From NCBI RefSeq assembly GCF_016026235.1, contig NZ_CP065613.1: a stretch of DNA of 64,000 nucleotides; one strand, given 5' to 3'. The stretch comes from Escherichia coli. GTDB lineage: Bacteria > Pseudomonadota > Gammaproteobacteria > Enterobacterales > Enterobacteriaceae. The first letter of the stretch is position 1. Every line of letters begins with the position of its first letter. Made by a program: the position numbers and the translations under genes. The notes under the pieces were generated by a model. It did no database searches. It was not told the DNA's origin and was given only the letters and a program-made list of their open reading frames with translations. Below, in pieces: positions 4,911 to 45,363 of this stretch.

Positions 4911-6050
4911 ATGATCGATTATGAAGTATTGCGTTTTATCTGGTGGCTGCTGGTTGGCGTTCTGCTGATTGGTTTTGCAGTCACTGACGGTTTCGACATG
5001 GGGGTGGGCATGCTCACCCGTTTCCTCGGTCGTAACGACACCGAGCGTCGAATTATGATTAACTCCATTGCACCACACTGGGACGGTAACCAGGTTTGGC
5101 TGATCACCGCGGGCGGCGCACTCTTTGCTGCCTGGCCGATGGTCTATGCCGCTGCGTTCTCCGGCTTCTATGTGGCGATGATCCTCGTGCTGGCGTCTTT
5201 GTTCTTCCGTCCGGTCGGTTTTGACTACCGCTCCAAGATTGAAGAAACCCGCTGGCGTAACATGTGGGACTGGGGCATCTTCATTGGTAGCTTCGTTCCG
5301 CCGCTGGTAATTGGTGTAGCGTTCGGTAACCTGTTGCAGGGCGTACCGTTCAACGTTGATGAATATCTGCGTCTGTACTACACCGGTAACTTCTTCCAGT
5401 TGCTCAACCCGTTCGGCCTGCTGGCAGGCGTGGTGAGCGTAGGGATGATCATTACTCAGGGCGCAACCTATCTGCAAATGCGTACCGTGGGCGAACTGCA
5501 CCTGCGTACCCGTGCAACGGCTCAGGTGGCTGCGCTGGTGACACTGGTCTGTTTCGCACTGGCTGGCGTATGGGTGATGTACGGTATCGATGGTTATGTC
5601 GTGAAATCGACAATGGACCATTACGCAGCCTCTAACCCACTGAATAAAGAAGTGGTTCGTGAAGCTGGCGCATGGCTGGTTAACTTCAACAACACGCCAA
5701 TTCTGTGGGCTATTCCGGCACTGGGTGTGGTTCTGCCGCTGCTGACCATCCTGACTGCACGTATGGATAAAGCCGCGTGGGCGTTTGTGTTCTCCTCCCT
5801 GACGCTGGCCTGCATCATCCTGACAGCCGGTATCGCAATGTTCCCGTTTGTGATGCCGTCCAGCACCATGATGAACGCAAGTCTGACAATGTGGGATGCA
5901 ACTTCCAGCCAGCTGACGCTTAACGTCATGACCTGGGTTGCGGTGGTTCTGGTACCGATCATTCTGCTCTACACCGCCTGGTGTTACTGGAAAATGTTCG
6001 GTCGTATCACCAAAGAAGATATTGAACGTAACACCCACTCTCTGTACTAA
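4911..6050 (+). CDS. cydB: cytochrome bd-I ubiquinol oxidase subunit II
   Basis: 379-aa translation MIDYEVLRFIWWLLVGVLLIGFAVTDGFDMGVGML... recognised as CydB. Confidence 0.97.
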   Translation: MIDYEVLRFIWWLLVGVLLIGFAVTDGFDMGVGMLTRFLGRNDTERRIMINSIAPHWDGNQVWLITAGGALFAAWPMVYAAAFSGFYVAMILVLASLFFRPVGFDYRSKIEETRWRNMWDWGIFIGSFVPPLVIGVAFGNLLQGVPFNVDEYLRLYYTGNFFQLLNPFGLLAGVVSVGMIITQGATYLQMRTVGELHLRTRATAQVAALVTLVCFALAGVWVMYGIDGYVVKSTMDHYAASNPLNKEVVREAGAWLVNFNNTPILWAIPALGVVLPLLTILTARMDKAAWAFVFSSLTLACIILTAGIAMFPFVMPSSTMMNASLTMWDATSSQLTLNVMTWVAVVLVPIILLYTAWCYWKMFGRITKEDIERNTHSLY

Positions 6051-6064
6051 GTAAGGAGCTAAAA

Positions 6065-6178
6065 ATGTGGTATTTCGCATGGATTCTGGGAACGCTTCTT
6101 GCCTGTTCGTTTGGGGTAATCACCGCGCTGGCGCTTGAACACGTCGAATCAGGCAAAGCCGGTCAAGAAGACATCTGA
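6065..6178 (+). CDS. cydX: cytochrome bd-I small subunit CydX (37 aa), below ORF-track size cutoff
   Basis: ATG 6 nt after AAGGAG; translation MWYFAWILGTLLACSFGVITALALEHVESGKAGQEDI; single TM helix; position right after cydB. Confidence 0.85.
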   Translation: MWYFAWILGTLLACSFGVITALALEHVESGKAGQEDI

Positions 6179-6471
6179 TGAGTAAGATTATCGCGACCTT
6201 GTATGCGGTAATGGACAAGCGCCCCCTGCGGGCGCTTTCCTTCGTGATGGCGCTTCTGTTAGCAGGATGTATGTTTTGGGACCCATCTCGTTTTGCCGCG
6301 AAGACCAGTGAACTGGAAATCTGGCATGGTTTATTGCTGATGTGGGCCGTCTGTGCTGGTGTGATTCACGGCGTGGGCTTTCGTCCGCAGAAGGTTCTTT
6401 GGCAAGGGATTTTTTGCCCATTGCTTGCCGATATTGTTCTCATTGTCGGGCTGATTTTCTTCTTCTTTTAA
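6178..6471 (+). CDS. ybgE: small inner-membrane protein YbgE (cyd operon)
   Basis: 97-aa hydrophobic ORF overlapping the cydX stop; conserved synteny cydABX-ybgE. Confidence 0.85.
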   Translation: MSKIIATLYAVMDKRPLRALSFVMALLLAGCMFWDPSRFAAKTSELEIWHGLLLMWAVCAGVIHGVGFRPQKVLWQGIFCPLLADIVLIVGLIFFFF

Positions 6472-6492
6472 ATCAGAATTCTCTTTAAAAAA

Positions 6493-6524
6493 TTATGGGC
6501 CGCTCCAGGCCCATAAATTTTTAC
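6493..6524 (+). terminator. rho-independent terminator after the cyd operon
   Basis: hairpin atgggcc-gctcca-ggcccat followed by aaatttttac. Confidence 0.5.
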
Positions 6525-6620
6525 GCTCCCTTAACTTGCCCTCATTCCCAAACCTCAATCGCGCGCGTATAGTAGCAGCGTTTAAAAGCTCTAACTTTTG
6601 TTGCATTACCGGGATGTAAA

Positions 6621-7714
<1,094 letters not shown>

Positions 7715-12422: not shown

Positions 12423-12498
12423 GGGTCGTTAGCTCAGTTGGTAGAGCAGTTGACTTTTAATCAATTGGTCGCAGGTTCGAATCCTGCACGACCCACCA
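12423..12498 (+). tRNA. lysT: tRNA-Lys (anticodon UUU)
   Basis: GGGTCGTTAGCTCAGTTGGTAGAGCAGTTGACTTTTAATCAATTGGTCGCAGGTTCGAATCCTGCACGACCCACCA; cloverleaf and CCA end. Confidence 0.97.
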
Positions 12499-12525
12499 AT
12501 CGCTAAGGTGGAAGCGGTAGTAAAA

Positions 12526-12598
12526 CGTGAAGGATAACGTTGCATCAGCAACGGCCCGAAGGGCGAGACGAAGTCGAGTCATCCTGCACGACCCACCA
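12526..12598 (+). repeat. spacer repeat copy 1 ending in a duplicated tRNA-Lys 3'-end fragment (..gtcatcctgcacgacccacca)
   Basis: about 72 nt, near-identical to copies at 12815-12885 and 13119-13189; last ~19 nt match the T-arm/acceptor 3' end of tRNA-Lys. Confidence 0.8.
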
Positions 12599-12633
12599 CT
12601 AACATAGTTAGTTGTAGTATCCAGCGTAGTATT

Positions 12634-12709
12634 GGGTGATTAGCTCAGCTGGGAGAGCACCTCCCTTACAAGGAGGGGGTCGGCGGTTCGATCCCGTCAT
12701 CACCCACCA
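12634..12709 (+). tRNA. valT: tRNA-Val (anticodon UAC)
   Basis: GGGTGATTAGCTCAGCTGGGAGAGCACCTCCCTTACAAGGAGGGGGTCGGCGGTTCGATCCCGTCATCACCCACCA. Confidence 0.97.
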
Positions 12710-12711
12710 CC

Positions 12712-12787
12712 GGGTCGTTAGCTCAGTTGGTAGAGCAGTTGACTTTTAATCAATTGGTCGCAGGTTCGAATCCTGCACGACCCACCA
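12712..12787 (+). tRNA. lysW: tRNA-Lys (anticodon UUU)
   Basis: identical to lysT copy. Confidence 0.97.
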
Positions 12788-12814
12788 GTTTTAGCATCGA
12801 AGACAGATGTTAAG

Positions 12815-12885
12815 CGTGTAGGATAACGTTGCGTCAGCAACGGCCCGTAGGGCGAGCGAAGCGAGTCATCCTGCACGACCCACCA
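12815..12885 (+). repeat. spacer repeat copy 2 with tRNA-Lys 3'-end fragment
   Basis: cgtgtaggataacgttgcgtcagcaacggcccgtagggcgagcgaagcgagtcatcctgcacgacccacca. Confidence 0.8.
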
Positions 12886-12936
12886 CTAATTACGGTGGGT
12901 TCGGTGGAAGTAGTTTGTAGTATCCAGCGCAGTATC

Positions 12937-13012
12937 GGGTGATTAGCTCAGCTGGGAGAGCACCTCCCTTACAAGGAGGGGGTCGGCGGTTCGATCCCGT
13001 CATCACCCACCA
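12937..13012 (+). tRNA. valZ: tRNA-Val (anticodon UAC)
   Basis: identical to valT copy. Confidence 0.97.
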
Positions 13013-13015
13013 CTC

Positions 13016-13091
13016 GGGTCGTTAGCTCAGTTGGTAGAGCAGTTGACTTTTAATCAATTGGTCGCAGGTTCGAATCCTGCACGACCCACCA
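13016..13091 (+). tRNA. lysY: tRNA-Lys (anticodon UUU)
   Basis: identical to lysT copy. Confidence 0.97.
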
Positions 13092-13118
13092 ATTTTAACA
13101 TCAAACTCAGATGTTAAG

Positions 13119-13189
13119 CGTGAAGGATAACGTTGCGCCAGCAACGGCCCGAAGGGCGAGCGAAGCGAGTCATCCTGCACGACCCACCA
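13119..13189 (+). repeat. spacer repeat copy 3 with tRNA-Lys 3'-end fragment
   Basis: cgtgaaggataacgttgcgccagcaacggcccgaagggcgagcgaagcgagtcatcctgcacgacccacca. Confidence 0.8.
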
Positions 13190-13237
13190 ATCTTAAAGAT
13201 TGGCCCCGAGTAAAAATCTTTCAGGTAACACCCGTAT

Positions 13238-13313
13238 GGGTCGTTAGCTCAGTTGGTAGAGCAGTTGACTTTTAATCAATTGGTCGCAGGTTCGAATCCT
13301 GCACGACCCACCA
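13238..13313 (+). tRNA. lysZ: tRNA-Lys (anticodon UUU)
   Basis: identical to lysT copy. Confidence 0.97.
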
Positions 13314-13346
13314 TCCTGAATGATTAAAGCAGCATAATCCCGCAAG

Positions 13347-13422
13347 GGGTCGTTAGCTCAGTTGGTAGAGCAGTTGACTTTTAATCAATTGGTCGCAGGT
13401 TCGAATCCTGCACGACCCACCA
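13347..13422 (+). tRNA. lysQ: tRNA-Lys (anticodon UUU)
   Basis: identical to lysT copy. Confidence 0.97.
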
Positions 13423-19417: not shown

Positions 19418-20458
19418 TTACTCAGCAATAAACTGATATTCCGTCAGGCTGGAATACTCTTCACCAGGATGCAGGAAGCAGTCCGGTTGCGGCCATTCAG
19501 GGTGGTTCGGGCTGTCCGGCAGAAACTCGCTTTCCAGAGCCAGCCCTTGCCAGTCGGCGTAAGGTTCGGTTCCCCGCGACGGTGTGCCGCCGAGGAAGTT
19601 GCCGGAGTAGAATTGCAGAGCCGGAGCGGTGGTGTAGACCTTCAACTGCAATTTTTCATCTGCTGACCAGAGATGTGCCGCCACTTTTTTGCCATCGCCT
19701 TTGGCCTGTAACAAGAACGCGTGATCGTAACCTTTCACTTTGCGCTGATCGTCGTCGGCAAGAAACTCACTGGCGATGATTTTGGCGCTGCGGAAATCAA
19801 AAGACGTTCCGGCGACAGATTTCAGGCCGTCGTGCGGAATGCCGCCTTCATCAACCGGCAGATATTCGTCCGCCAGAATCTGCAACTTGTGATTGCGCAC
19901 GTCAGACTGCTCGCCGTCAAGATTGAAATAGACGTGATTAGTCATATTCACCGGGCAAGGTTTATCAACTGTGGCGCGATAAGTAATGGAGATACGGTTA
20001 TCGTCGGTCAGACGATATTGCACCGTCGCGCCGAGATTACCCGGGAAGCCCTGATCGCCATCATCTGAACTCAGGGCAAACAGCACCTGACGATCGTTCT
20101 GGTTCACAATCTGCCAGCGACGTTTGTCGAACCCTTCCGGGCCGCCGTGCAATTGGTTGACGCCCTGACTTGGCAACAGCGTCACGGTTTCACCGTCAAA
20201 GGTATAACGGCTATTGGCGATGCGGTTAGCATAACGACCAATAGAGGCCCCCAGAAACGCGGCCTGATCCTGATAGCATTCCGGGCTGGCACAGCCGAGC
20301 AGCGCCTCGCGGACGCTGCCATCGGAAAGCGGAATACGGGCTGAAAGTAAAGTCGCACCCCAGTCCATCAGCGTGACTACCATCCCTGCGTTGTTACGCA
20401 AAGTTAACAGTCGGTACGGCTGACCATCGGGTGCCAGTGCGGGAGTTTCGTTCAGCAC
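19418..20458 (-). CDS. galM: galactose mutarotase (aldose 1-epimerase)
   Basis: 346 aa; [43 protein letters not shown]... Confidence 0.95.
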
Positions 20459-21600
20459 TGTCCTGCTCCTTGTGATGGTTTACAAACGTAAAAAGTCTCT
20501 TTAATACCTGTTTTTGCTTCATATTGTTCAGCGACAGCTTGCTGTACGGCAGGCACCAGCTCTTCCGGGATCAGCGCGACGATACAGCCGCCAAATCCGC
20601 CGCCGGTCATGCGTACGCCACCTTTGTCGCCAATCACAGCTTTGACGATTTCAACCAGAGTGTCAATTTGCGGCACGGTGATTTCGAAATCATCGCGCAT
20701 AGAGGCATGAGACTCCGCCATCAACTCGCCCATACGTTTCAGGTCGCCTTGCTCCAGCGCGCTGGCAGCTTCAACGGTACGGGCGTTTTCAGTCAGGATA
20801 TGACGCACGCGTTTCGCCACGATTGGGTCCAGCTCATGTGCAACAGCGTTGAACTCTTCAATGGTGACATCGCGCAGAGCTGGCTGCTGGAAGAAACGCG
20901 CACCGGTTTCGCACTGTTCACGACGGGTGTTGTATTCGCTGCCAACCAGGGTACGTTTGAAGTTACTGTTGATGATGACGACAGCCACACCTTTCGGCAT
21001 GGAAACTGCTTTGGTCCCCAGTGAGCGACAGTCAATCAGCAAGGCGTGATCTTTTTTGCCGAGCGCGGAAATAAGCTGATCCATGATCCCGCAGTTACAG
21101 CCAACAAACTGGTTTTCTGCTTCCTGACCGTTAAGCGCGATTTGTGCGCCGTCCAGCGGCAGATGATAAAGCTGCTGCAATACGGTTCCGACCGCCACTT
21201 CCAGTGAGGCGGAAGAACTTAACCCGGCACCCTGCGGCACGTTGCCGCTGATCACCATGTCCACGCCGCCGAAGCTGTTGTTACGCAGTTGCAGATGTTT
21301 CACCACGCCACGAACGTAGTTAGCCCATTGATAGTTTTCATGCGCGACAATGGGCGCATCAAGGGAAAACTCGTCAAGCTGATTTTCATAATCGGCTGCC
21401 ATTACGCGAACTTTACGGTCATCGCGTGGTGCACAGCTGATCACGGTTTGATAATCAATCGCGCAGGGCAGAACGAAACCGTCGTTGTAGTCGGTGTGTT
21501 CACCAATCAAATTCACGCGGCCAGGCGCCTGAATGGTGTGAGTGGCAGGGTAGCCAAATGCGTTGGCAAACAGAGATTGCGTTTTTTCTTTCAGACTCAT
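20452..21600 (-). CDS. galK: galactokinase
   Basis: 382 aa; GHMP kinase motifs ([23 protein letters not shown]); looks full length. Confidence 0.96.
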
Positions 21601-21603
21601 TTC

Positions 21604-22650
21604 TTACACTCCGGATTCGCGAAAATGGATATCGCTGACTGCGCGCAAACGCTCTGCTGCCTGTTCTGCCGTCAGATCACGCTGGGTTTCTGCCAGCATT
21701 TCATAACCGACCATAAATTTACGTACGGTGGCGGAGCGCAACAGAGGCGGATAAAAGTGCGCGTGCAGCTGCCAGTGTTGATTCTCTTCGCCATTAAATG
21801 GCGCGCCGTGCCAGCCCATAGAGTAGGGGAAGGAGCACTGGAAGAGGTTGTCATAACGACTGGTCAGCTTTTTCAACGCCAGCGCCAGATCGCTGCGCTG
21901 GGCGTCGGTCAAATCGGTGATCCGTAAAACGTGGGCTTTGGGCAGCAGTAGCGTTTCGAACGGCCAGGCAGCCCAGTAAGGCACTACGGCTAACCAGTGT
22001 TCGGTTTCAACAACGGTACGGCTACCGTCTGCCAGCTCGCGCTGAACATAATCCACCAGCATTGGTGATTTCTGCTCGGCAAAATATTCTTTTTGCAGGC
22101 GGTCTTCGCGCTCAGCTTCGTTAGGCAGGAAGCTATTTGCCCAAACCTGTCCGTGCGGATGCGGGTTAGAGCAGCCCATCGCCGCGCCTTTATTTTCAAA
22201 GACCTGCACCCATGGGTACGTTTTCCCCAGTTCTGCGGTTTGCTCCTGCCAGGTTTTGACGATTTCCGTCAATGCCGCAACACTGAGCTCTGGCAGCGTT
22301 TTACTGTGATCCGGTGAAAAGCAGATCACCCGGCTGGTACCGCGCGCGCTCTGGCAACGCATCAAAGGATCGTTGCTTTCTGGCGCATCTGGCGTGTCAG
22401 ACATCAAGGCCGCAAAGTCATTAGTGAAAACGTAAGTCCCGGTGTAATCGGGGTTTTTATCGCCTGTCACCCGCACATTACCTGCGCAGAGGAAGCAATC
22501 TGGATCGTGCGCAGGTAACACCTGTTTGGCTGGCGTTTCCTGCGCCCCCTGCCAGGGGCGCTTAGCGCGGTGCGGTGAAACCAGAATCCATTGCCCGGTG
22601 AGCGGGTTGTAGCGGCGATGTGGATGATCAACGGGATTAAATTGCGTCAT
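21604..22650 (-). CDS. galT: galactose-1-phosphate uridylyltransferase domain; here in the same ORF as galE because the galE stop codon is absent
   Basis: C-terminal 348 aa of the 704-aa ORF starting [35 protein letters not shown]...; HPH motif present. Confidence 0.9.
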
Positions 22651-22659
22651 GGTCGTTCC

Positions 22660-23676
22660 TTTATCGGGATATCCCTGTGGATGGCGTGACTGCCAGTGCC
22701 AGGTGTCCTGCGCCATTTCATCGAGTGTGCGCGTTACGCGCCAGTTCAGTTCACGGTCGGCTTTGCTGGCGTCCGCCCAGTAGGCCGGAAGGTCGCCCTC
22801 GCGACGCGGTGCAAAATGATAGTTAACCGGTTTGCCGCAGGCTTTGCTGAAGGCATTAACCACGTCCAGCACGCTGCTGCCTACGCCAGCACCGAGGTTG
22901 TAGATGTGTACGCCTGGCTTGTTCGCCAGTTTTTCCATCGCCACGACGTGACCGTCCGCCAGATCCATTACGTGGATGTAATCGCGTACGCCAGTACCGT
23001 CTTCGGTCGGATAATCGTTACCAAAAATCGCCAGCGAGTCGCGACGGCCTACAGCAACCTGGGCGATGTATGGCATCAGGTTATTCGGAATGCCTTGCGG
23101 ATCTTCGCCCATATCGCCCGACGGATGCGCGCCAACCGGGTTGAAGTAGCGCAGCAGGGCAATGCTCCAGTCCGGCTGGGCTTTTTGCAGATCGGTGAGG
23201 ATCTGTTCCACCATCAGCTTGCTTTTGCCGTAAGGGCTTTGCGGTGTGCCGGTCGGGAAGCTTTCAACGTATGGAATTTTGGGCTGATCGCCATAAACGG
23301 TGGCGGAGGAGCTAAAAATAAAGTTTTTGACGTTAGCGGCGCGCATGGCGCTAATCAGGCGCAGAGTACCGTTGACATTGTTGTCGTAATATTCCAGCGG
23401 TTTTTGTACCGATTCGCCAACGGCTTTCAGCCCGGCGAAGTGGATCACGGTGTCGATAGCGTGATCGTGCAGGATCTCGGTCATCAACGCTTCGTTACGG
23501 ATATCGCCTTCAACAAACGTTGGATGTTTGCCGCCTAAACGCTCGATAACAGGCAGTACGCTGCGCTTACTGTTACAGAGGTTATCAAGAATGATGACAT
23601 CATGACCGTTTTGCAGTAATTGCACACAGGTATGACTTCCAATGTAACCGCTACCACCGGTGACCAGAACTCTCAT
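22660..23676 (-). CDS. galE: UDP-glucose 4-epimerase; its terminal codon reads AAA (Lys) instead of a stop, giving an in-frame GalE-KGTT-GalT read-through ORF
   Basis: [21 protein letters not shown]... to ...[13 protein letters not shown] (338 aa), then KGTT and the GalT Met in the same frame; ORF-track ORF 21604..23718 spans both. Confidence 0.9.
23642..23657. promoter_or_regulatory. gal internal operator OI (GalR/GalS site) inside galE
   Basis: atgtaaccgctaccac (coding strand GTGGTAGCGGTTACAT) about 20-35 nt into galE. Confidence 0.7.
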
Positions 23677-23750
23677 AATTCGCTCCATTAGGCTTATGGT
23701 ATGAAATAACCATAGCATAACAAAGATGCGAAAAGTGTGACATGGAATAA
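23677..23750 (-). promoter_or_regulatory. gal P1/P2 promoter region with CRP site
   Basis: coding strand reads ...AATTTATTCCATGTCACACTTTTCGCATCTTTGTTATGCTATGGTTATTTCATACCATAAGCCTAATGGAGCGAATTATG, the classic gal regulatory sequence. Confidence 0.75.
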
Positions 23751-23754
23751 ATTA

Positions 23755-23770
23755 GTGGAATCGTTTACAC
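23755..23770. promoter_or_regulatory. gal external operator OE (GalR/GalS site)
   Basis: gtggaatcgtttacac (coding strand GTGTAAACGATTCCAC) upstream of gal promoters. Confidence 0.75.
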
Positions 23771-23937
23771 AAGAGTTTAGCCATTTTTTATGTGCGATTA
23801 AGTGATTATAAAACAGAGGCTTTATGAATGATTGCGCTTTTTATCTGAAAAAAAGACGCGGTTTCATGTCTGCATGCGTCGAACCGTTGGCCGGATAGGG
23901 CGCTTAGGCCGCCTCCGGCAAGGTCAGCACTACCGAC

Positions 23938-29234: not shown

Positions 29235-30053
29235 TTAAATCAGGTGGCTATAAATGAACTGGGCAATGCTGTCGGTGGTGTTATCACCAATCACAATATT
29301 GGCGCGCGCTTTTACCGCGTCATCGGCGTTGCCCATCGCCACGCCTGTACCAGCGGCTTCCAGCATACTGATATCATTAAAGTTATCGCCGAATGCCACG
29401 ACGTTTTCCATCGACCAACCTTGCGCCTCAACCCATTTCGTCAAACGTTTACCTTTGCTGTTGCCGCCGCGTGCAATATCAACCTGATCGTGCCAGGACC
29501 ATTCACACTCCAGTCCCAGTTCATGTTCGACATGCTTACCAAAATGCTGCAATTGCGGCAGGTCATCGTGCGTCAGGGCGAACTTCCATACGGCGTTAAC
29601 TTGTTGCGCCGTTTCAGCCAGAGAAGCGACTTGTGTGAAAGTCGGACGCTGTTCCGGCGGCAGGGTTTGCGCCCAGTTAGATGTGCGAATGACATGCCCG
29701 GTCGGGTGCTCATAGACCATTGCATCATCGACATACATCAGACCGTGAATGTGGTGTTCATTCAGCATCTCAATGAGTTGCAGGGCTTTAATAACGGGCA
29801 TTGGGTCCGCTTCCAGCACGGTTTTTGCATGATAATCATACAAATAGGTGCCATTACAGCAAATAGCAGGTGTATCCAGCGCCAGCGCCTGATAAAAAGG
29901 ATGAATAGCGACGTGATGGCGACCTGTGACGATGATTAATTGATAGCCTGCTTCGCGAGCGCGGGCCAGGGCTTCTATCGATGATGGAAGCAAGGTCTTT
30001 TTCGGGGTCAATAAGGTGCCGTCTAAGTCGAGAGCAATCACGCGTGTGGTCAT
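29235..30053 (-). CDS. ybhA: HAD-family sugar phosphatase YbhA (Cof-type)
   Basis: MTTRVIALDLDGTLL... DxD HAD motif; 272 aa; ORF-track N-terminal extension is not real. Confidence 0.9.
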   Translation of the reverse strand: MTTRVIALDLDGTLLTPKKTLLPSSIEALARAREAGYQLIIVTGRHHVAIHPFYQALALDTPAICCNGTYLYDYHAKTVLEADPMPVIKALQLIEMLNEHHIHGLMYVDDAMVYEHPTGHVIRTSNWAQTLPPEQRPTFTQVASLAETAQQVNAVWKFALTHDDLPQLQHFGKHVEHELGLECEWSWHDQVDIARGGNSKGKRLTKWVEAQGWSMENVVAFGDNFNDISMLEAAGTGVAMGNADDAVKARANIVIGDNTTDSIAQFIYSHLI

Positions 30054-30288
30054 GGCGTATTCCAGATTAAGGTTAAGAATTTTCGTCTGCGCGAATGGTA
30101 CACCGATACCACTATCGGACAAAATTCTGCGTTTTAATTCAGCATTCACCGCCAAAAGCGACTAATTTTAGCTGTTACAGTCAGTTGCTAAATGCAAAGG
30201 AGCATTCATGAAGCAAATGCCTCTTAGGAATTAATCCTTTATAATCAATTAATTACAAGTGGCGTTTCGAAATCATTCGAAATTAATT

Positions 30289-31335
30289 CTAAATGTCTTT
30301 CCATTCCCTCCCTCGTCCGTCACGGTATTTATCCGTCATGCTGGATGAACGATGTCCAAGGAGCGCCTGAGTGAAATCACTGCCTTTTTCTGCTGAGTGC
30401 AGGCGACCGGATAAACTTCGGATTTCATGAAATGGCGGTGGGTCACCTTCCCATTTCAATCCGGATGTGTCTCGGGCAATCCTGAACTGTGCTGCGATTG
30501 TCCTGGCTGTCTTCCCTCCGAGTAACTTTTCGTTTTTACCGTTTATTTTTTTCAAGTTATCCAGTACATCGGCAAGTGTTAAATTCAATCTGGAAATCGT
30601 GGTGGGGAGAGAAATGCGAATTTTTGCCCCTGTTTTTTGTTGTTCCACGTATAGCCTGCCATCTCTTATATCCTCCCATCTCATAGCCGCCAGATCTCCT
30701 TCGCGCTGTCCTGTTACCAGTGCAAGATCCATGCAAAGGCCGAACCATTCGTTCTGGACGTCTGCTATTTTCCTGATTAACAGATACTCGTCAATTAACA
30801 GTCGACTGCGCTTCACTTCAGTTCTGAATGGCTTGGTTGCAGAAGCTGGATCTTCTTCGGCAAGACCAGAAGCTATAGCTGTTTTAAAAATGTCTGATAA
30901 AAGCGCCCTGTACTGGTTAGCAATAGCAAATTTACTCCCAGCTGCTCTGATTTCAAGAAAGCTGTACACCTCCCTTATGCCTATATTTTTAACCGGAACA
31001 CCACCAAAGTATTCACTTATGATTTTCAACCTCTGGTTGTGTCTTTTCATGGTGTTTGTGCTTAATTGTCTACGCTCTATTTCATTTCTGAAATTTAATA
31101 TCAGCTCGCAGAATAATGTTACGCTATTACCTTTTATTCTATCCAGTAAGCTTATATGTTGCGTGGATAATAATTCCATATTTGCCGCAATAGCCTCATT
31201 AACTGCAATTCTTTTGTCTCTTCCGATTCCAAACTCCCTTCCTGAACGTGGGTCACGATAACTATAATATCCACCTCGATTGTAAAGATTGGGTGGTAGA
31301 TCACGTGTGTTTGAGTTTCTTCTTCGTCCGGTCAT
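30289..31335 (-). CDS. int: lambda-type tyrosine integrase
   Basis: MTGRRRNSNTRDLPPNLYNRGGYYSYRDPRSGREFGIGRDKRIAV... closely parallels lambda Int; C-terminal HxxR...Y catalytic region (LLGHRSSSMTDKYRD). Confidence 0.93.
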   Translation of the reverse strand: MTGRRRNSNTRDLPPNLYNRGGYYSYRDPRSGREFGIGRDKRIAVNEAIAANMELLSTQHISLLDRIKGNSVTLFCELILNFRNEIERRQLSTNTMKRHNQRLKIISEYFGGVPVKNIGIREVYSFLEIRAAGSKFAIANQYRALLSDIFKTAIASGLAEEDPASATKPFRTEVKRSRLLIDEYLLIRKIADVQNEWFGLCMDLALVTGQREGDLAAMRWEDIRDGRLYVEQQKTGAKIRISLPTTISRLNLTLADVLDNLKKINGKNEKLLGGKTARTIAAQFRIARDTSGLKWEGDPPPFHEIRSLSGRLHSAEKGSDFTQALLGHRSSSMTDKYRDGRGREWKDI

Positions 31336-31525
31336 TTCTGATTCTCTGCAAAAGCCCGCCAGTCGTTTGAGGTGTAATTTTTTTTGCTGACTCATGAAAT
31401 AAATATTCACGCCCATCCTTTATCGGTGGTGGAAAAATCTTACATTCTCGCACCCAGCGGCGAACCGTTTCTGGGCTTCGTGGACGTAACTGACGGGCGT
31501 TCCATTCTTTGAGTGTCAAATACAT
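31301..31525 (-). CDS. xis: excisionase
   Basis: MYLTLKEWNARQLRPRSPETVRRWVRECKIFPPPIKDGREYLFHESA... near-identical architecture to lambda Xis; overlaps int start. Confidence 0.92.
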   Translation of the reverse strand: MYLTLKEWNARQLRPRSPETVRRWVRECKIFPPPIKDGREYLFHESAKKITPQTTGGLLQRIRNDRTKKKLKHT

Positions 31526-31629
31526 GTCATATTCCTGTAATATGACCGCCAGTAAATATACAGAATACTGGCGGGCGTGGTTGATTTTTAATAATCAGCT
31601 ATGAAGTTCTAATTTTGATATAATGCAAC

Positions 31630-31824
31630 TCACGAGGACAGAAGTTTCTCGCAATTAAAATTTATCAGTTTTACTTTCTGCTCTCTGGAAACGCCTGCTT
31701 CTTTTTTCCCTGAGAGCATTTTTTCGCATTCTGATTTCGTTAGTTTAGATTTTGAATATCTTGTCCAGCTGGTAGGAGAACCACCTTCCTTTTCAATAGT
31801 GGCTGTAATTTTATACATGAACAC
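31630..31824 (-). CDS. hypothetical phage protein (64 aa)
   Basis: ORF in the leftward early operon between the ATPase gene and xis. Confidence 0.4.
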   Translation of the reverse strand: MFMYKITATIEKEGGSPTSWTRYSKSKLTKSECEKMLSGKKEAGVSREQKVKLINFNCEKLLSS

Positions 31825-31868
31825 CTACATTAATATTTTCAAAAACCGTGTTCAAAATGCACTTGGTT

Positions 31869-32966
31869 TTACACCGGAATATTCTCATCGTATCCTGCTT
31901 GTTGCGTTTCGTTTTGTGTTTGTGGATCCGGGAATGCATATTCAACGCCTTCCAGTTCAATCCATAGTGCATTACGACCAGCTTTGATTGTCGGCCAGTC
32001 CATACCTTTGATTCTTTCCCATGAGCGGGAGGTGAATGTTTTTTCCAGCAAATCAGCTTTTGCGCGTTTGGCGTCGTTACTGGTGCCCCCATGGTGCTTG
32101 TTGAGCAACTCGATAATTTCATCAAGTGCGATTTCTTTTGCACGCTTTTCTTTTAGCCATGTCGGTGTACCGTCGTTGGCAAATAATTCACTGTTATCCC
32201 GTGAGGTATCGATGCCGAGGTGTTCACCTCCCAGGTTAAGAAACTCGATATGAGGAAGAAAGTTTTTAAATGTTGGGTTTGAAAATACCTGTCCATCAAT
32301 ACGGGTGGAGCGATCTTTTAGTATTCTGGCGGTGCGCCACACCTGACCGGTTTCTATGTTCATTTGCTTCTCCATCTGGATCAGGATGGAGGGTTCATAA
32401 CCGGTTTCTGTTTCTGCTTTCATTTTTATACCGGTTTTTGCCAACTGGCGTTTGCCATCATCACCTTCGAAAAAGTCATACTCATATCCTGCACGCCCGC
32501 ACATAATAATGTGCGCCTGACTGTTAACAAATCGATCGGTAAAGCGTCGCCACTCCTGTTTGAGCCACGCCCAGTCTGAAAATTCCAGTCCTCGTTTACG
32601 GTTTCGGCGTCTGGCATACTCGTCGCATAATCCGGTCCAGAAGTGACTGATGGAGTCGATGATCATTACGGAACCGCTGCTTTCCGCTTCATTAATGGCT
32701 TCAAGCAGATCAACAAACGAGCGGGTTTTTGCCGTAAATAATTCGATATTTTCCGCATCAAAGCGGGGTTTAACCCAGTCAGAGCCTGTTTCTGTGTCCA
32801 GAAACATTACCGGGCGGTTACCAGCTTCAATTCCCCGTTGCCGCATAAGCATTACCAGACCAATAGCCAGTTCGCTTGCTGTGTAGGTTTTGCCGTCGCC
32901 AGCAAACCCCATAATTCCTGCTTTTAGATAGGCCTGTGTGTTTATTGCTCGTTGAAAAAGCGCCAT
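31869..32966 (-). CDS. AAA_24-type (Sak4/RecA-like) phage ATPase
   Basis: Walker A GFAGDGKTYTA and Walker B VMIIDSISHFW motifs; 365 aa; sits where recT/bet lies in Rac/lambda. Confidence 0.55.
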   Translation of the reverse strand: MALFQRAINTQAYLKAGIMGFAGDGKTYTASELAIGLVMLMRQRGIEAGNRPVMFLDTETGSDWVKPRFDAENIELFTAKTRSFVDLLEAINEAESSGSVMIIDSISHFWTGLCDEYARRRNRKRGLEFSDWAWLKQEWRRFTDRFVNSQAHIIMCGRAGYEYDFFEGDDGKRQLAKTGIKMKAETETGYEPSILIQMEKQMNIETGQVWRTARILKDRSTRIDGQVFSNPTFKNFLPHIEFLNLGGEHLGIDTSRDNSELFANDGTPTWLKEKRAKEIALDEIIELLNKHHGGTSNDAKRAKADLLEKTFTSRSWERIKGMDWPTIKAGRNALWIELEGVEYAFPDPQTQNETQQAGYDENIPV

Positions 32967-32971
32967 AGATT

Positions 32972-33271
32972 TTAGTCCTCCAAATCAATATCAACCTGGT
33001 GGTGGGCAATGGTTTCAGCCATGTACCGGATGTGTTCTGCCATGCGCTCCTGAAACTCAACATCATCATCAAATGCGTGGCTGATTGCCTGTTTATTGGC
33101 ACCGTGGCGTTGCAAATGGTCGATGCAGAGCGATTCAAACAGGTGCTGAGGCAGACCTTTTTCCAGGTCGTCCGCCAGTTCCGTTTCTTTTTCTTCACGA
33201 ACGATCTGCTGGTAGTGGCGAGCCCATGCCATTTCTTCAATACGATCAAAAATCGGGTAAGCGCTCATCAC
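32972..33271 (-). CDS. hypothetical acidic phage protein (99 aa)
   Basis: ORF between the RecE-like gene and the ATPase gene, same strand, tightly packed. Confidence 0.4.
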
Positions 33272-35204
33272 TGGTCACTCCAAAATTTTCAAGCTTGTTG
33301 GCAATCATCATTGCGATGTCAGGGATTGCAGGCGCATAGGCTATGCACGCAGGATTCGCACATAAACCGTAAACCGCCGCAATCAACACCTGTTTTTTCC
33401 AGTTGAGTTCATCTTCGCCAGTTTCATTATTGCTATCATTATGCTGATCGCTGCCAGCGTTCTCCGGTAACAAATCATCAGCTTTTTCCGTTTTCTTCGG
33501 CTCTTCTTCCTGTGCTTCATCTGGTTTTTTTTCGTCAAAAGTTTCCTGATAAGTTGCGTCTCCCATCACCGCGCCACAGTCAGGGCAGTTATCCTCGCCA
33601 GTCTGATTGCAGGGTGTTCCCTCCTCCGGTTCGCTGTTCTGGTGCTGTTTATCTTCAGTCTGTCGCACTTCATTTTCCGTTTTTTTGACTTCATTTGAGG
33701 AGATATGATGACCGGGAATCCATTTCGGATCATTCGGGTCGCTAATCCCTTCAACAAATTCTCCGCGAGAGGCAGCCAGTAATTTGTCTGCATCGACAGG
33801 ATTTTTGGGCGGAATGTTTTTCCGGGCTTCATGGAGTTCTGCCCGCAGTTCCTGATATTTCGCATCAACAGCATTTACCTGTGACTGAGCATCCAGCGGC
33901 TGCGTGTCCTGATGATGTTCAGTTGCATCCGGTTCCACTGTTTCAGCCGTTGCCTGTTCATCTGCCATTGCGCAAGATGGTTGCGGTTTTTCTTCATCAT
34001 CCTGTTTTCCTTCTTCTGTTACTCGCTGCGGCATCGGGGCAGAGGAGCGACCGCAGGCAATATCCACGATTTCCGGATCAGGGTTGGCATGATCGGTTTC
34101 AGTCAGTACTTTGTTCAGATATTCAGTGACGTGTGCGGGGATGACCTCGATCCCAATTGGTGCTTCTTTCACGGACGCAACCACGATGGCGCGGGAATAA
34201 TCCAGCCCGCCAGGCATGGTGATGAATTTGTCGCGGAAAACAGAAAAGGGTGGTTTATTTTCAGCGATAATTTCCTCAATGCGTTTAGCGTGTGCCGGAT
34301 GAAGGTTATAGATGTCCACGTCCATTGAACGGGCCAGTACGCCAGTGGCTACATCGCGCGTCAGTGACGTCAGATCGTGGACGAAACCTTCGCCGCGATC
34401 GGTGAGGTTCCCGCCGCCAGCATTAGCACCGGAAGTCGTGCGAGTGATGCGTGAAACACGATTCCCTTTTCGCCATTCTTTTGTCAGAAGACCGCGATCA
34501 ATGTGTTCGGTATCCAGCCAGGCTGAAATGAAATTCTTAAATTCATAGGGCTGATGTTTTTTCGTGATAGAGAAAACTGCCTTAATTGCATCAGTCAGGC
34601 GGAGCAGGGCGGCATTATCCAGAGTTGTCGGTTCTGCCATGCCGCGTATGGCCAACAGCAGATTCTGGACATAGCTGTTTTCCTGATCCATCTCAAGAGC
34701 AGTAATGTGTTTGCGTTGTTCACGGGTGGCATGATGCAGGTATTTCCGATCCCCGGCAGCATACGTAAAAATGTGCAGAAGACGCTGTGTGAACCGCAAA
34801 GTGGCTACAGAGACTTCGCAATCCTGGCAATCCTCGTGGGCGTCTGCCTGCGCGTTTTCTTCCTGGCCTCCCGCCAGTTCTTTGGTTTCTTGAGCATTAT
34901 CCTGGTGGTGAACGTCGTCTGGCGCTGCTCCCGGTTTTAGTTCCCATGTCATGGAGTCTTTGCTGAGTTGATAGCGTTCACTCCAGGTAAAATCGATCTC
35001 ACCTTCAGGGGGAAGGTCATTAACGACAGGAAAATTTGTGGCAACAGCTTTAAAATAGTTGCTCAGTTTTTTACCTGACTTAACGAGCAGATAGTCCAGA
35101 GTGGTGCTGGTCGATTCAAAATCGTCGCTTGCCCACAGGACGACGTCAGGTTCACCGGATGATTTTTTCGCTTTCCGTAACAGGAAGAGTGGTTTTGTGC
35201 TCAT
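33246..35204 (-). CDS. RecE (exonuclease VIII) N-terminal-region homolog; C-terminal nuclease domain apparently absent
   Basis: N-terminus [31 protein letters not shown]... and internal block [35 protein letters not shown]...[64 protein letters not shown] match my recollection of Rac RecE; 652 aa vs about 866 aa for RecE. Confidence 0.55.
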
Positions 35205-45052: not shown

Positions 45053-45129
45053 GGCCCTTTAGCTCAGTTGGTCAGAGCGAGCGACTCATAATCGCCAGGT
45101 CGCTGGTTCAAGTCCAGCAAGGGCCACCA
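45053..45129 (+). tRNA. tRNA-Ile2 (anticodon CAU, lysidine-type; close relative of E. coli ileX)
   Basis: GGCCCTTTAGCTCAGTTGGTCAGAGCGAGCGACTCATAATCGCCAGGTCGCTGGTTCAAGTCCAGCAAGGGCCACCA; cannot fully exclude Met by sequence alone. Confidence 0.8.
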
Positions 45130-45130
45130 A

Positions 45131-45207
45131 CCACCACTAGCTCATCCGGATAGAGCATCAACCTTCTAAGTTGACGGTGCGAGGTTCGAGTCCTCGGTGG
45201 TGGGCCA
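45131..45207 (+). tRNA. tRNA-Arg (anticodon UCU)
   Basis: CCACCACTAGCTCATCCGGATAGAGCATCAACCTTCTAAGTTGACGGTGCGAGGTTCGAGTCCTCGGTGGTGGGCCA; cloverleaf folds, C1-G72 pair. Confidence 0.75.
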
Positions 45208-45209
45208 GC

Positions 45210-45285
<76 letters not shown>

Positions 45286-45288
45286 TAT

Positions 45289-45363
<75 letters not shown>

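Follow-up and report, generated by a model that had tools for sequence, protein, structure and literature searches.

The gal operon of Escherichia coli keeps galE and galT as separate neighbouring cistrons in K-12. Can the loss of the galE stop codon join them, in nature, into one gene for a working two-enzyme chain? This question is raised by a 64,000-nt stretch of E. coli DNA (hereafter the window), whose ORF listing shows a single minus-strand ORF of 704 aa (21604..23718) spanning both genes. The 14 N-terminal residues of this ORF are an overrun of the ORF finder into the gal promoter/leader, and the galE ATG lies at 23676, positioned as in K-12, which gives a fused product of 690 aa.

The fused galE-galT reading frame

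The fused ORF (21604..23676, minus strand; 690 codons plus stop) consists of GalE (338 residues), the tetrapeptide KGTT (Lys-Gly-Thr-Thr) and GalT (348 residues), with a predicted mass of 77.2 kDa. Its UDP-glucose 4-epimerase part (codons 1-338; 22663..23676, minus strand) matches PDB entries 1udc/1xel (E=1e-234), and its galactose-1-phosphate uridylyltransferase part (348 codons plus TAA; 21604..22650, minus strand) matches 1hxp/1hxq (E=1e-245). The coding strand at the junction reads GGA TAT CCC GAT AAA GGA ACG ACC ATG ACG CAA, with the AAA codon (Lys339) at 22662-22660. The K-12 MG1655 reference, which was fetched and aligned to the window, reads GAT TAA GGAACGACC ATG at the same place. The two sequences thus differ by one base at the galE stop codon, the plus strand having T at 22662 in the window versus A in K-12. 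Because of this single-base difference a sense codon replaces the stop, and because the former intercistronic spacer GGAACGACC (22651..22659, minus strand; 9 nt, now Gly-Thr-Thr codons) is in frame and stop-free, galE and galT form one 690-codon ORF. An earlier note on this DNA, made from the letters alone, had described full-length GalE joined in frame through KGTT to full-length GalT, given TAA as the K-12 codon one base away, and estimated a product of about 77 kDa; the ORF, the reference alignment and the computed mass agree with it on all three points.

Judged from the sequence, the mechanism behind the window allele is an ordinary stop-codon-loss fusion. As in the stop-codon-loss fusions found in pangenomes, one stop substitution joins two cistrons across a stop-free spacer whose length is divisible by three. 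Those fusions, however, are mostly annotated as errors or pseudogenes, whereas the partners here are well-studied consecutive enzymes of one pathway, and the RNA effect of this exact mutation has been measured.

The signals for separate translation of galT are kept. Its own ATG stands at 22650-22648 (minus strand), and its Shine-Dalgarno sequence AAGGA (22661-22657, minus strand; assigned according to PMC9239205) is made up of spacer bases and the last two bases of the AAA codon. The E-hairpin GCGCCCCUGGCAGGGGGCGC, an element described in PMC9239205, was located by sequence and fold in early galT (22542..22561, minus strand; coordinates counted off from the stop codon). Upstream of galE, the gal promoter/leader (23677..23796, minus strand) equals K-12 over its proximal ~98 nt and carries three substitutions farther upstream. 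Downstream, intact galK (20452-21600) and galM (19418-20458), together 19418..21600 on the minus strand, complete the galETKM operon. Besides the stop codon, the galE-galT region of the window differs from K-12 at 29 sites in the alignment. Only N267S (window 22877) alters GalE relative to K-12, and H93N (window 22374) and I169V (window 22146) alter GalT. All three replacements appear conservative and are also present in FDAARGOS_943, the nearest complete genome; GalT codon 169 adjoins the HPHGQ active-site motif, and natural GalE-GalT fusion proteins have V there too.

Rarity, distribution and lineage of the allele

The frequency of the changed codon was determined with 35-mers centred on it, since megablast seeds such a query only where the centre matches. 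The AAA-centred 35-mer matched 0 of the 5,426 complete E. coli genomes, whereas the K-12 TAA-centred 35-mer matched 5,382 of them. The centred probes were used instead of a longer, 101-nt junction query, which matched 5,390 complete E. coli genomes, none at 100% identity, and which cannot tell TAA from AAA combined with another SNP. TAG, TGA, CAA, GAA, TTA, TCA, TAC and TAT were not found at the galE stop in one concatenated query, run with no positive control inside it. These results show that the galE TAA is effectively invariant in the complete-genome collection. The counts also rule out AAA as a normal polymorphism and dispose of the possibility, named in the earlier note as fatal to its claim, that AAA is the usual codon of reference genomes.

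Outside the complete genomes, the exact 690-aa protein is present in the public protein collection as STL97467.1, under the name 'galactose-1-phosphate uridylyltransferase [Escherichia coli]'. The 694-aa and 704-aa start-codon variants are absent from this collection, which holds the 690-aa form only. Of the 16 contigs that encode the exact protein, ten measure 10-20 kb, five 20-50 kb and one, a 4.56-Mb chromosome, more than 1 Mb; they include short-read Logan assemblies, 15 of the 16 places are grouped as similar, sample identity is visible for one, and the same strain may have been sequenced repeatedly among them.

Among complete genomes, FDAARGOS_943 comes closest to the window, with 13 substitutions over 18,062 nt between them. 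In FDAARGOS_943 galE ends in TAA, and galE and galT are annotated as separate genes. The GalT replacements V7I and V150A are private to FDAARGOS_943, the window being like K-12 at both positions, and the stop-loss is the only galE-galT change private to the window's clone. Since so near a relative (13 SNPs) has TAA, the stop-loss is derived and recent.

The plasmid of FDAARGOS_943 carries phoC, a fragment of an IpaH-type NEL ligase, virK, capU, sepA and very many IS elements; its chromosome has IS600 and IS2 in the prophage adjacent to this region, and the lineage as a whole is IS-rich, with many pseudogenes. Judged from this plasmid and IS content, the lineage looks EIEC/Shigella-like. No IS element was found within the window as a local cause of the change. 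The same 155-kb plasmid (NZ_CP065616.1; loci L004 and L005 of our set) also bears the F4/K88-like fimbrial genes faeD-I, its IpaH-type NEL ligase is truncated, and its IS content is very dense. No mxi-spa/ipa genes were seen in its first 100 kb; a strain labelled E. coli may here carry a degraded invasion plasmid.

Several further features of the window were recorded. A lambdoid prophage (30289-64000) with RecE/RecT-type, terminase and portal-like genes follows right after ybhA, with its integrase at 30289-31416 on the minus strand. The integrase/RecE part (~31300-34670) is uninterrupted in the window, whereas in FDAARGOS_943 IS600 has disrupted or deleted it. Four tightly packed tRNA genes of the prophage (Met-CAT, Arg-TCT, Thr-TGT and Gly-TCC) occupy 45053-45363. 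A chromosomal tRNA cluster upstream of nadA (12423-13422) holds five tRNA-Lys(UUU) and two tRNA-Val(UAC) genes, and the short-read contigs break there, probably because of the repeated tRNA units. For ybhA itself (29235-30155, minus strand), the ORF finder gave 306 aa from a TTG start versus the 272 aa annotated in FDAARGOS_943; the longer form probably reflects no more than the mechanical ORF call running on upstream.

Viability of the fusion and its natural counterparts

We consider it likely that the window carries a real, recent and clone-restricted TAA to AAA fusion, which most likely keeps both activities and is neutral or mildly deleterious. On the sequence, ribosomes initiating at galE would read through into galT and make the 77-kDa GalE-KGTT-GalT chain. 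With the galT Shine-Dalgarno sequence and AUG unchanged, some free GalT would probably still arise by internal initiation. Free GalE would be impossible to make unless the linker were cleaved.

The residues needed for catalysis are all in place. The GxxGxxG NAD motif, S124, Y149 and K153 are intact in the GalE part, and C52, C55, H115, H164-P-H166, Q168, E182, H281, H296 and H298, metal ligands included, in the GalT part; the numbering follows the E. coli structures, with which the types of residue found at these positions agree. No frameshift, premature stop or loss of a catalytic residue was found in the fused ORF, nor any other disabling change in galE, galT, galK or galM. In an AlphaFold2 model of the fusion (monomer; alignment of 123 sequences), the mean pLDDT was 93.7, both domains were above 90, and only residues 341-346, in the new linker, fell below 50. 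The pTM of 0.68 is as expected where the relative orientation of the domains is undefined, and a monomer model has no bearing on how a fusion of two homodimers assembles. The fusion is thus modelled as two confident domains on a floppy linker. A search of the PDB found no chain covering both the GalE and the GalT halves; its matches included 5gy7, an E. coli GalE crystallised with a longer C-terminus, and 1z45 (yeast Gal10), a GalE with a C-terminal fusion partner; in these two structures GalE tolerates an extension or a partner at its C-terminus.

The best-surviving alternative is that the change abolishes or strongly reduces the activity of GalE, GalT or both by misfolding or misassembly, and that the locus is an incipient pseudogene, one step in the metabolic decay to which Shigella/EIEC-like lineages are prone. 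GalE and GalT are each obligate homodimers, and a fusion of two dimeric proteins can misassemble or aggregate. The genomic background of FDAARGOS_943, rich in IS elements and pseudogenes and with pINV-type genes on its plasmid, would suit such decay. The mutation is moreover too recent for selection to have left a signal, so that no selection can be read from the intact sequence. On the contrary, the four genes are otherwise undamaged with their catalytic residues intact, the model has both domains whole on a flexible linker, and conservation is seen among natural fusions whose connector is shorter still. Since the galT Shine-Dalgarno sequence and AUG are kept, GalT at least would be makeable separately, and loss of GalE removes UDP-galactose for LPS, which is usually costly. 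We therefore regard loss of function as unlikely, though it is the rival to be taken most seriously. The fusion most likely keeps epimerase and uridylyltransferase activity, as residues, model and natural analogues together suggest; the bifunctional polypeptide proposed in the earlier note is plausible on these same grounds.

Do GalE-GalT fusions exist elsewhere? In an exhaustive search of 1.84 billion representative sequences with the fusion as query, one two-domain match, P0034, was found among the best 150. A search with P0034 in turn gave at least 60 clusters of proteins of 709-753 aa with the domains PF01370, PF01087 and PF02744. Such fusions, typically of about 715-730 aa (e.g., P0034 and P0169), are annotated in Latescibacterota, Poribacteria and Gemmatimonadota MAGs and in unclassified ones. 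They are conserved in many genomes at 50-90% identity, and at least one of them lies directly upstream of galK, 6 nt away, on a 6.17-Mb contig. Separate architectures of 666-692 aa and of about 850 aa also exist. Among the sequences we collected, P0034 and P0166-P0236 are natural GalE-GalT fusion proteins, one such locus (L006) spanning 5001-7166.

Like the E. coli fusion, the P0034-like proteins have GalE at the N-terminus and GalT at the C-terminus of one chain, with both sets of catalytic motifs. They differ in sharing 33-37% identity with it, whereas the E. coli fusion is one base away from unfused genes; their GalE domain is also longer by an inserted stretch of ~45 residues, which the E. 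coli fusion lacks. Their connector between HPxGY and R[YF]NP, short because the 10-12 N-terminal residues of GalT are missing, measures ~6 residues versus 17 in the E. coli fusion, which makes the latter sterically more permissive. Because ~35% identity stands against a single base separating the E. coli fusion from separate genes, the E. coli fusion arose independently of this family, and the P0034-like fusions are of independent, ancient origin. By sequence, the E. coli fusion would work like the P0034-like proteins and is not a member of their family, since it shares neither common descent nor the short junction with them. Yeast Gal10p (1z45), a UDP-galactose 4-epimerase/aldose 1-epimerase, likewise joins an N-terminal GalE to a C-terminal Leloir enzyme, its partner being, however, a GalM-like mutarotase rather than a uridylyltransferase, in an ancient eukaryotic protein. 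A literature search found nothing describing either a GalE-GalT fusion enzyme or a natural galE stop-loss allele.

The natural family raises the question of whether the E. coli fusion could itself have been favoured by selection, through fixed stoichiometry, channelling of UDP-galactose/UDP-glucose, or loss of the termination point that favours galE. The same architecture is fixed and conserved in other phyla, once beside galK; the engineered form of the mutation measurably shifts the mRNA composition of the operon (see below); and the variant persists on 16 contigs. Yet not one of the 5,426 complete E. coli genomes carries AAA, no independent stop-loss was seen at this codon, and the contigs share a single local haplotype, with 15 of the 16 places grouped as similar; hitch-hiking in a clone would fit this pattern equally well. 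An adaptive origin is consequently highly improbable. Its most far-reaching version, a convergent re-invention of the GalE-GalT chain in an EIEC/Shigella-like clone that would combine 1:1 enzymes, possible UDP-hexose channelling and removal of the termination point, we judge very unlikely too; were the adaptive reading true, the lost termination point would mean the end of GalE made without GalT, GalK and GalM. For the variant, neutrality or a mild fitness cost is most likely, ahead of adaptation.

Authenticity of the changed base and its probable effect at the RNA level

The favoured explanation, a genuine stop-codon-loss fusion, requires the base to be genuine. On the opposite view the true codon would be TAA, and AAA would have arisen as an artefact in one assembly; in its favour, all complete reference genomes differ here by a single base. 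However, the exact 690-aa product (STL97467.1) recurs on the 16 contigs, which come from several data sets. In the Logan assembly of SRR3000442, moreover, the 2073-nt galE-galT sequence is identical to that of the window, while two other differences occur over 14,073 nt; because of these two differences this contig is a separate data set and not a copied assembly. Since independent assemblies have the same base, a one-off sequencing or assembly error is excluded, and we give this alternative, which the earlier note had held to be equally possible, next to no chance. These results demonstrate that the galE stop-loss is real and reproducible.

The consequences at the RNA level can be approached through published work on K-12. 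About 10.7% of transcription ends by Rho ~140 nt into galT, in cases where reinitiation at galT by the lead ribosome fails, and this termination yields a stable galE-only mRNA with its 3' end just past the E-hairpin (PMC9239205, mBio 2022). In the same study, an engineered mutant named galE stop0, in which the galE stop was changed from UAA to AAA, was carried on the single-copy plasmid pGal in MG1655 from which the gal operon had been removed. It reduced galE mRNA 3' ends to 50% and galE mRNA to 60% of wild type, and to almost 5% in a sensitised background (PMC9239205), and Rho-dependent termination in early galT fell by about half. The window allele is the natural counterpart of this mutant. 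Both have the identical UAA to AAA change and the same Shine-Dalgarno sequence, AUG, E-hairpin and early galT; galE stop0, however, was a K-12 construct on a single-copy plasmid analysed for RNA 3' ends only, whereas the window allele is natural, chromosomal, non-K-12 and known from its sequence.

Over the 215 nt compared around and 3' of the stop codon, which include the Shine-Dalgarno sequence, the AUG, the E-hairpin and the pause/termination region, the window equals K-12 save for the SNP, and the next difference is at galT codon 81, 254 nt beyond the changed base. Because these 215 nt are identical, we infer less internal termination for the natural allele as well. Continuous translation over the junction would reduce Rho-dependent termination ~140 nt into galT, and the reduced termination would leave less galE-only mRNA and weaken the natural polarity of the operon. 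By analogy with galE stop0, the allele should thus lower both Rho-dependent termination in galT and the operon's polarity. The suggestion of the earlier note that coupling is altered at the galE-galT junction has been borne out by experiment for the identical engineered mutation (PMC9239205). Altered local RNA structure at the galT ribosome-binding site was also considered and set aside as uninformative, the predicted shifts in accessibility being modest (0.40 to 0.53 for the Shine-Dalgarno sequence and 0.79 to 0.57 for the AUG).

That the sequence itself derives from the engineered galE stop0 mutant, with which it shares its nucleotide change, can be dismissed almost entirely: the construct sat on pGal in a gal-deleted MG1655, whereas the window is chromosomal, has 29 other galE-galT differences from K-12 and a different prophage context, and matches a culture-collection-type genome record as well as unrelated SRA runs, so that the non-K-12 background rules out a laboratory origin.

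Overall, the natural allele is a small, clone-level SNP, probably near-neutral, and not a new kind of system. Its interest lies in where it falls, as textbooks use the gal operon to explain polarity, translational coupling and Rho-dependent termination within operons. For annotation, it means that the 690-aa 'GalT' entry represents a genuine allele rather than a mistake. A natural isolate with exactly the mutation that was engineered as a probe is also a ready-made test of the importance, outside the laboratory, of free GalE and the galE-only transcript, and it could show if GalE and GalT work as enzymes once fused. The apparently uncharacterised family of natural fusions suggests that this architecture is viable and perhaps beneficial.
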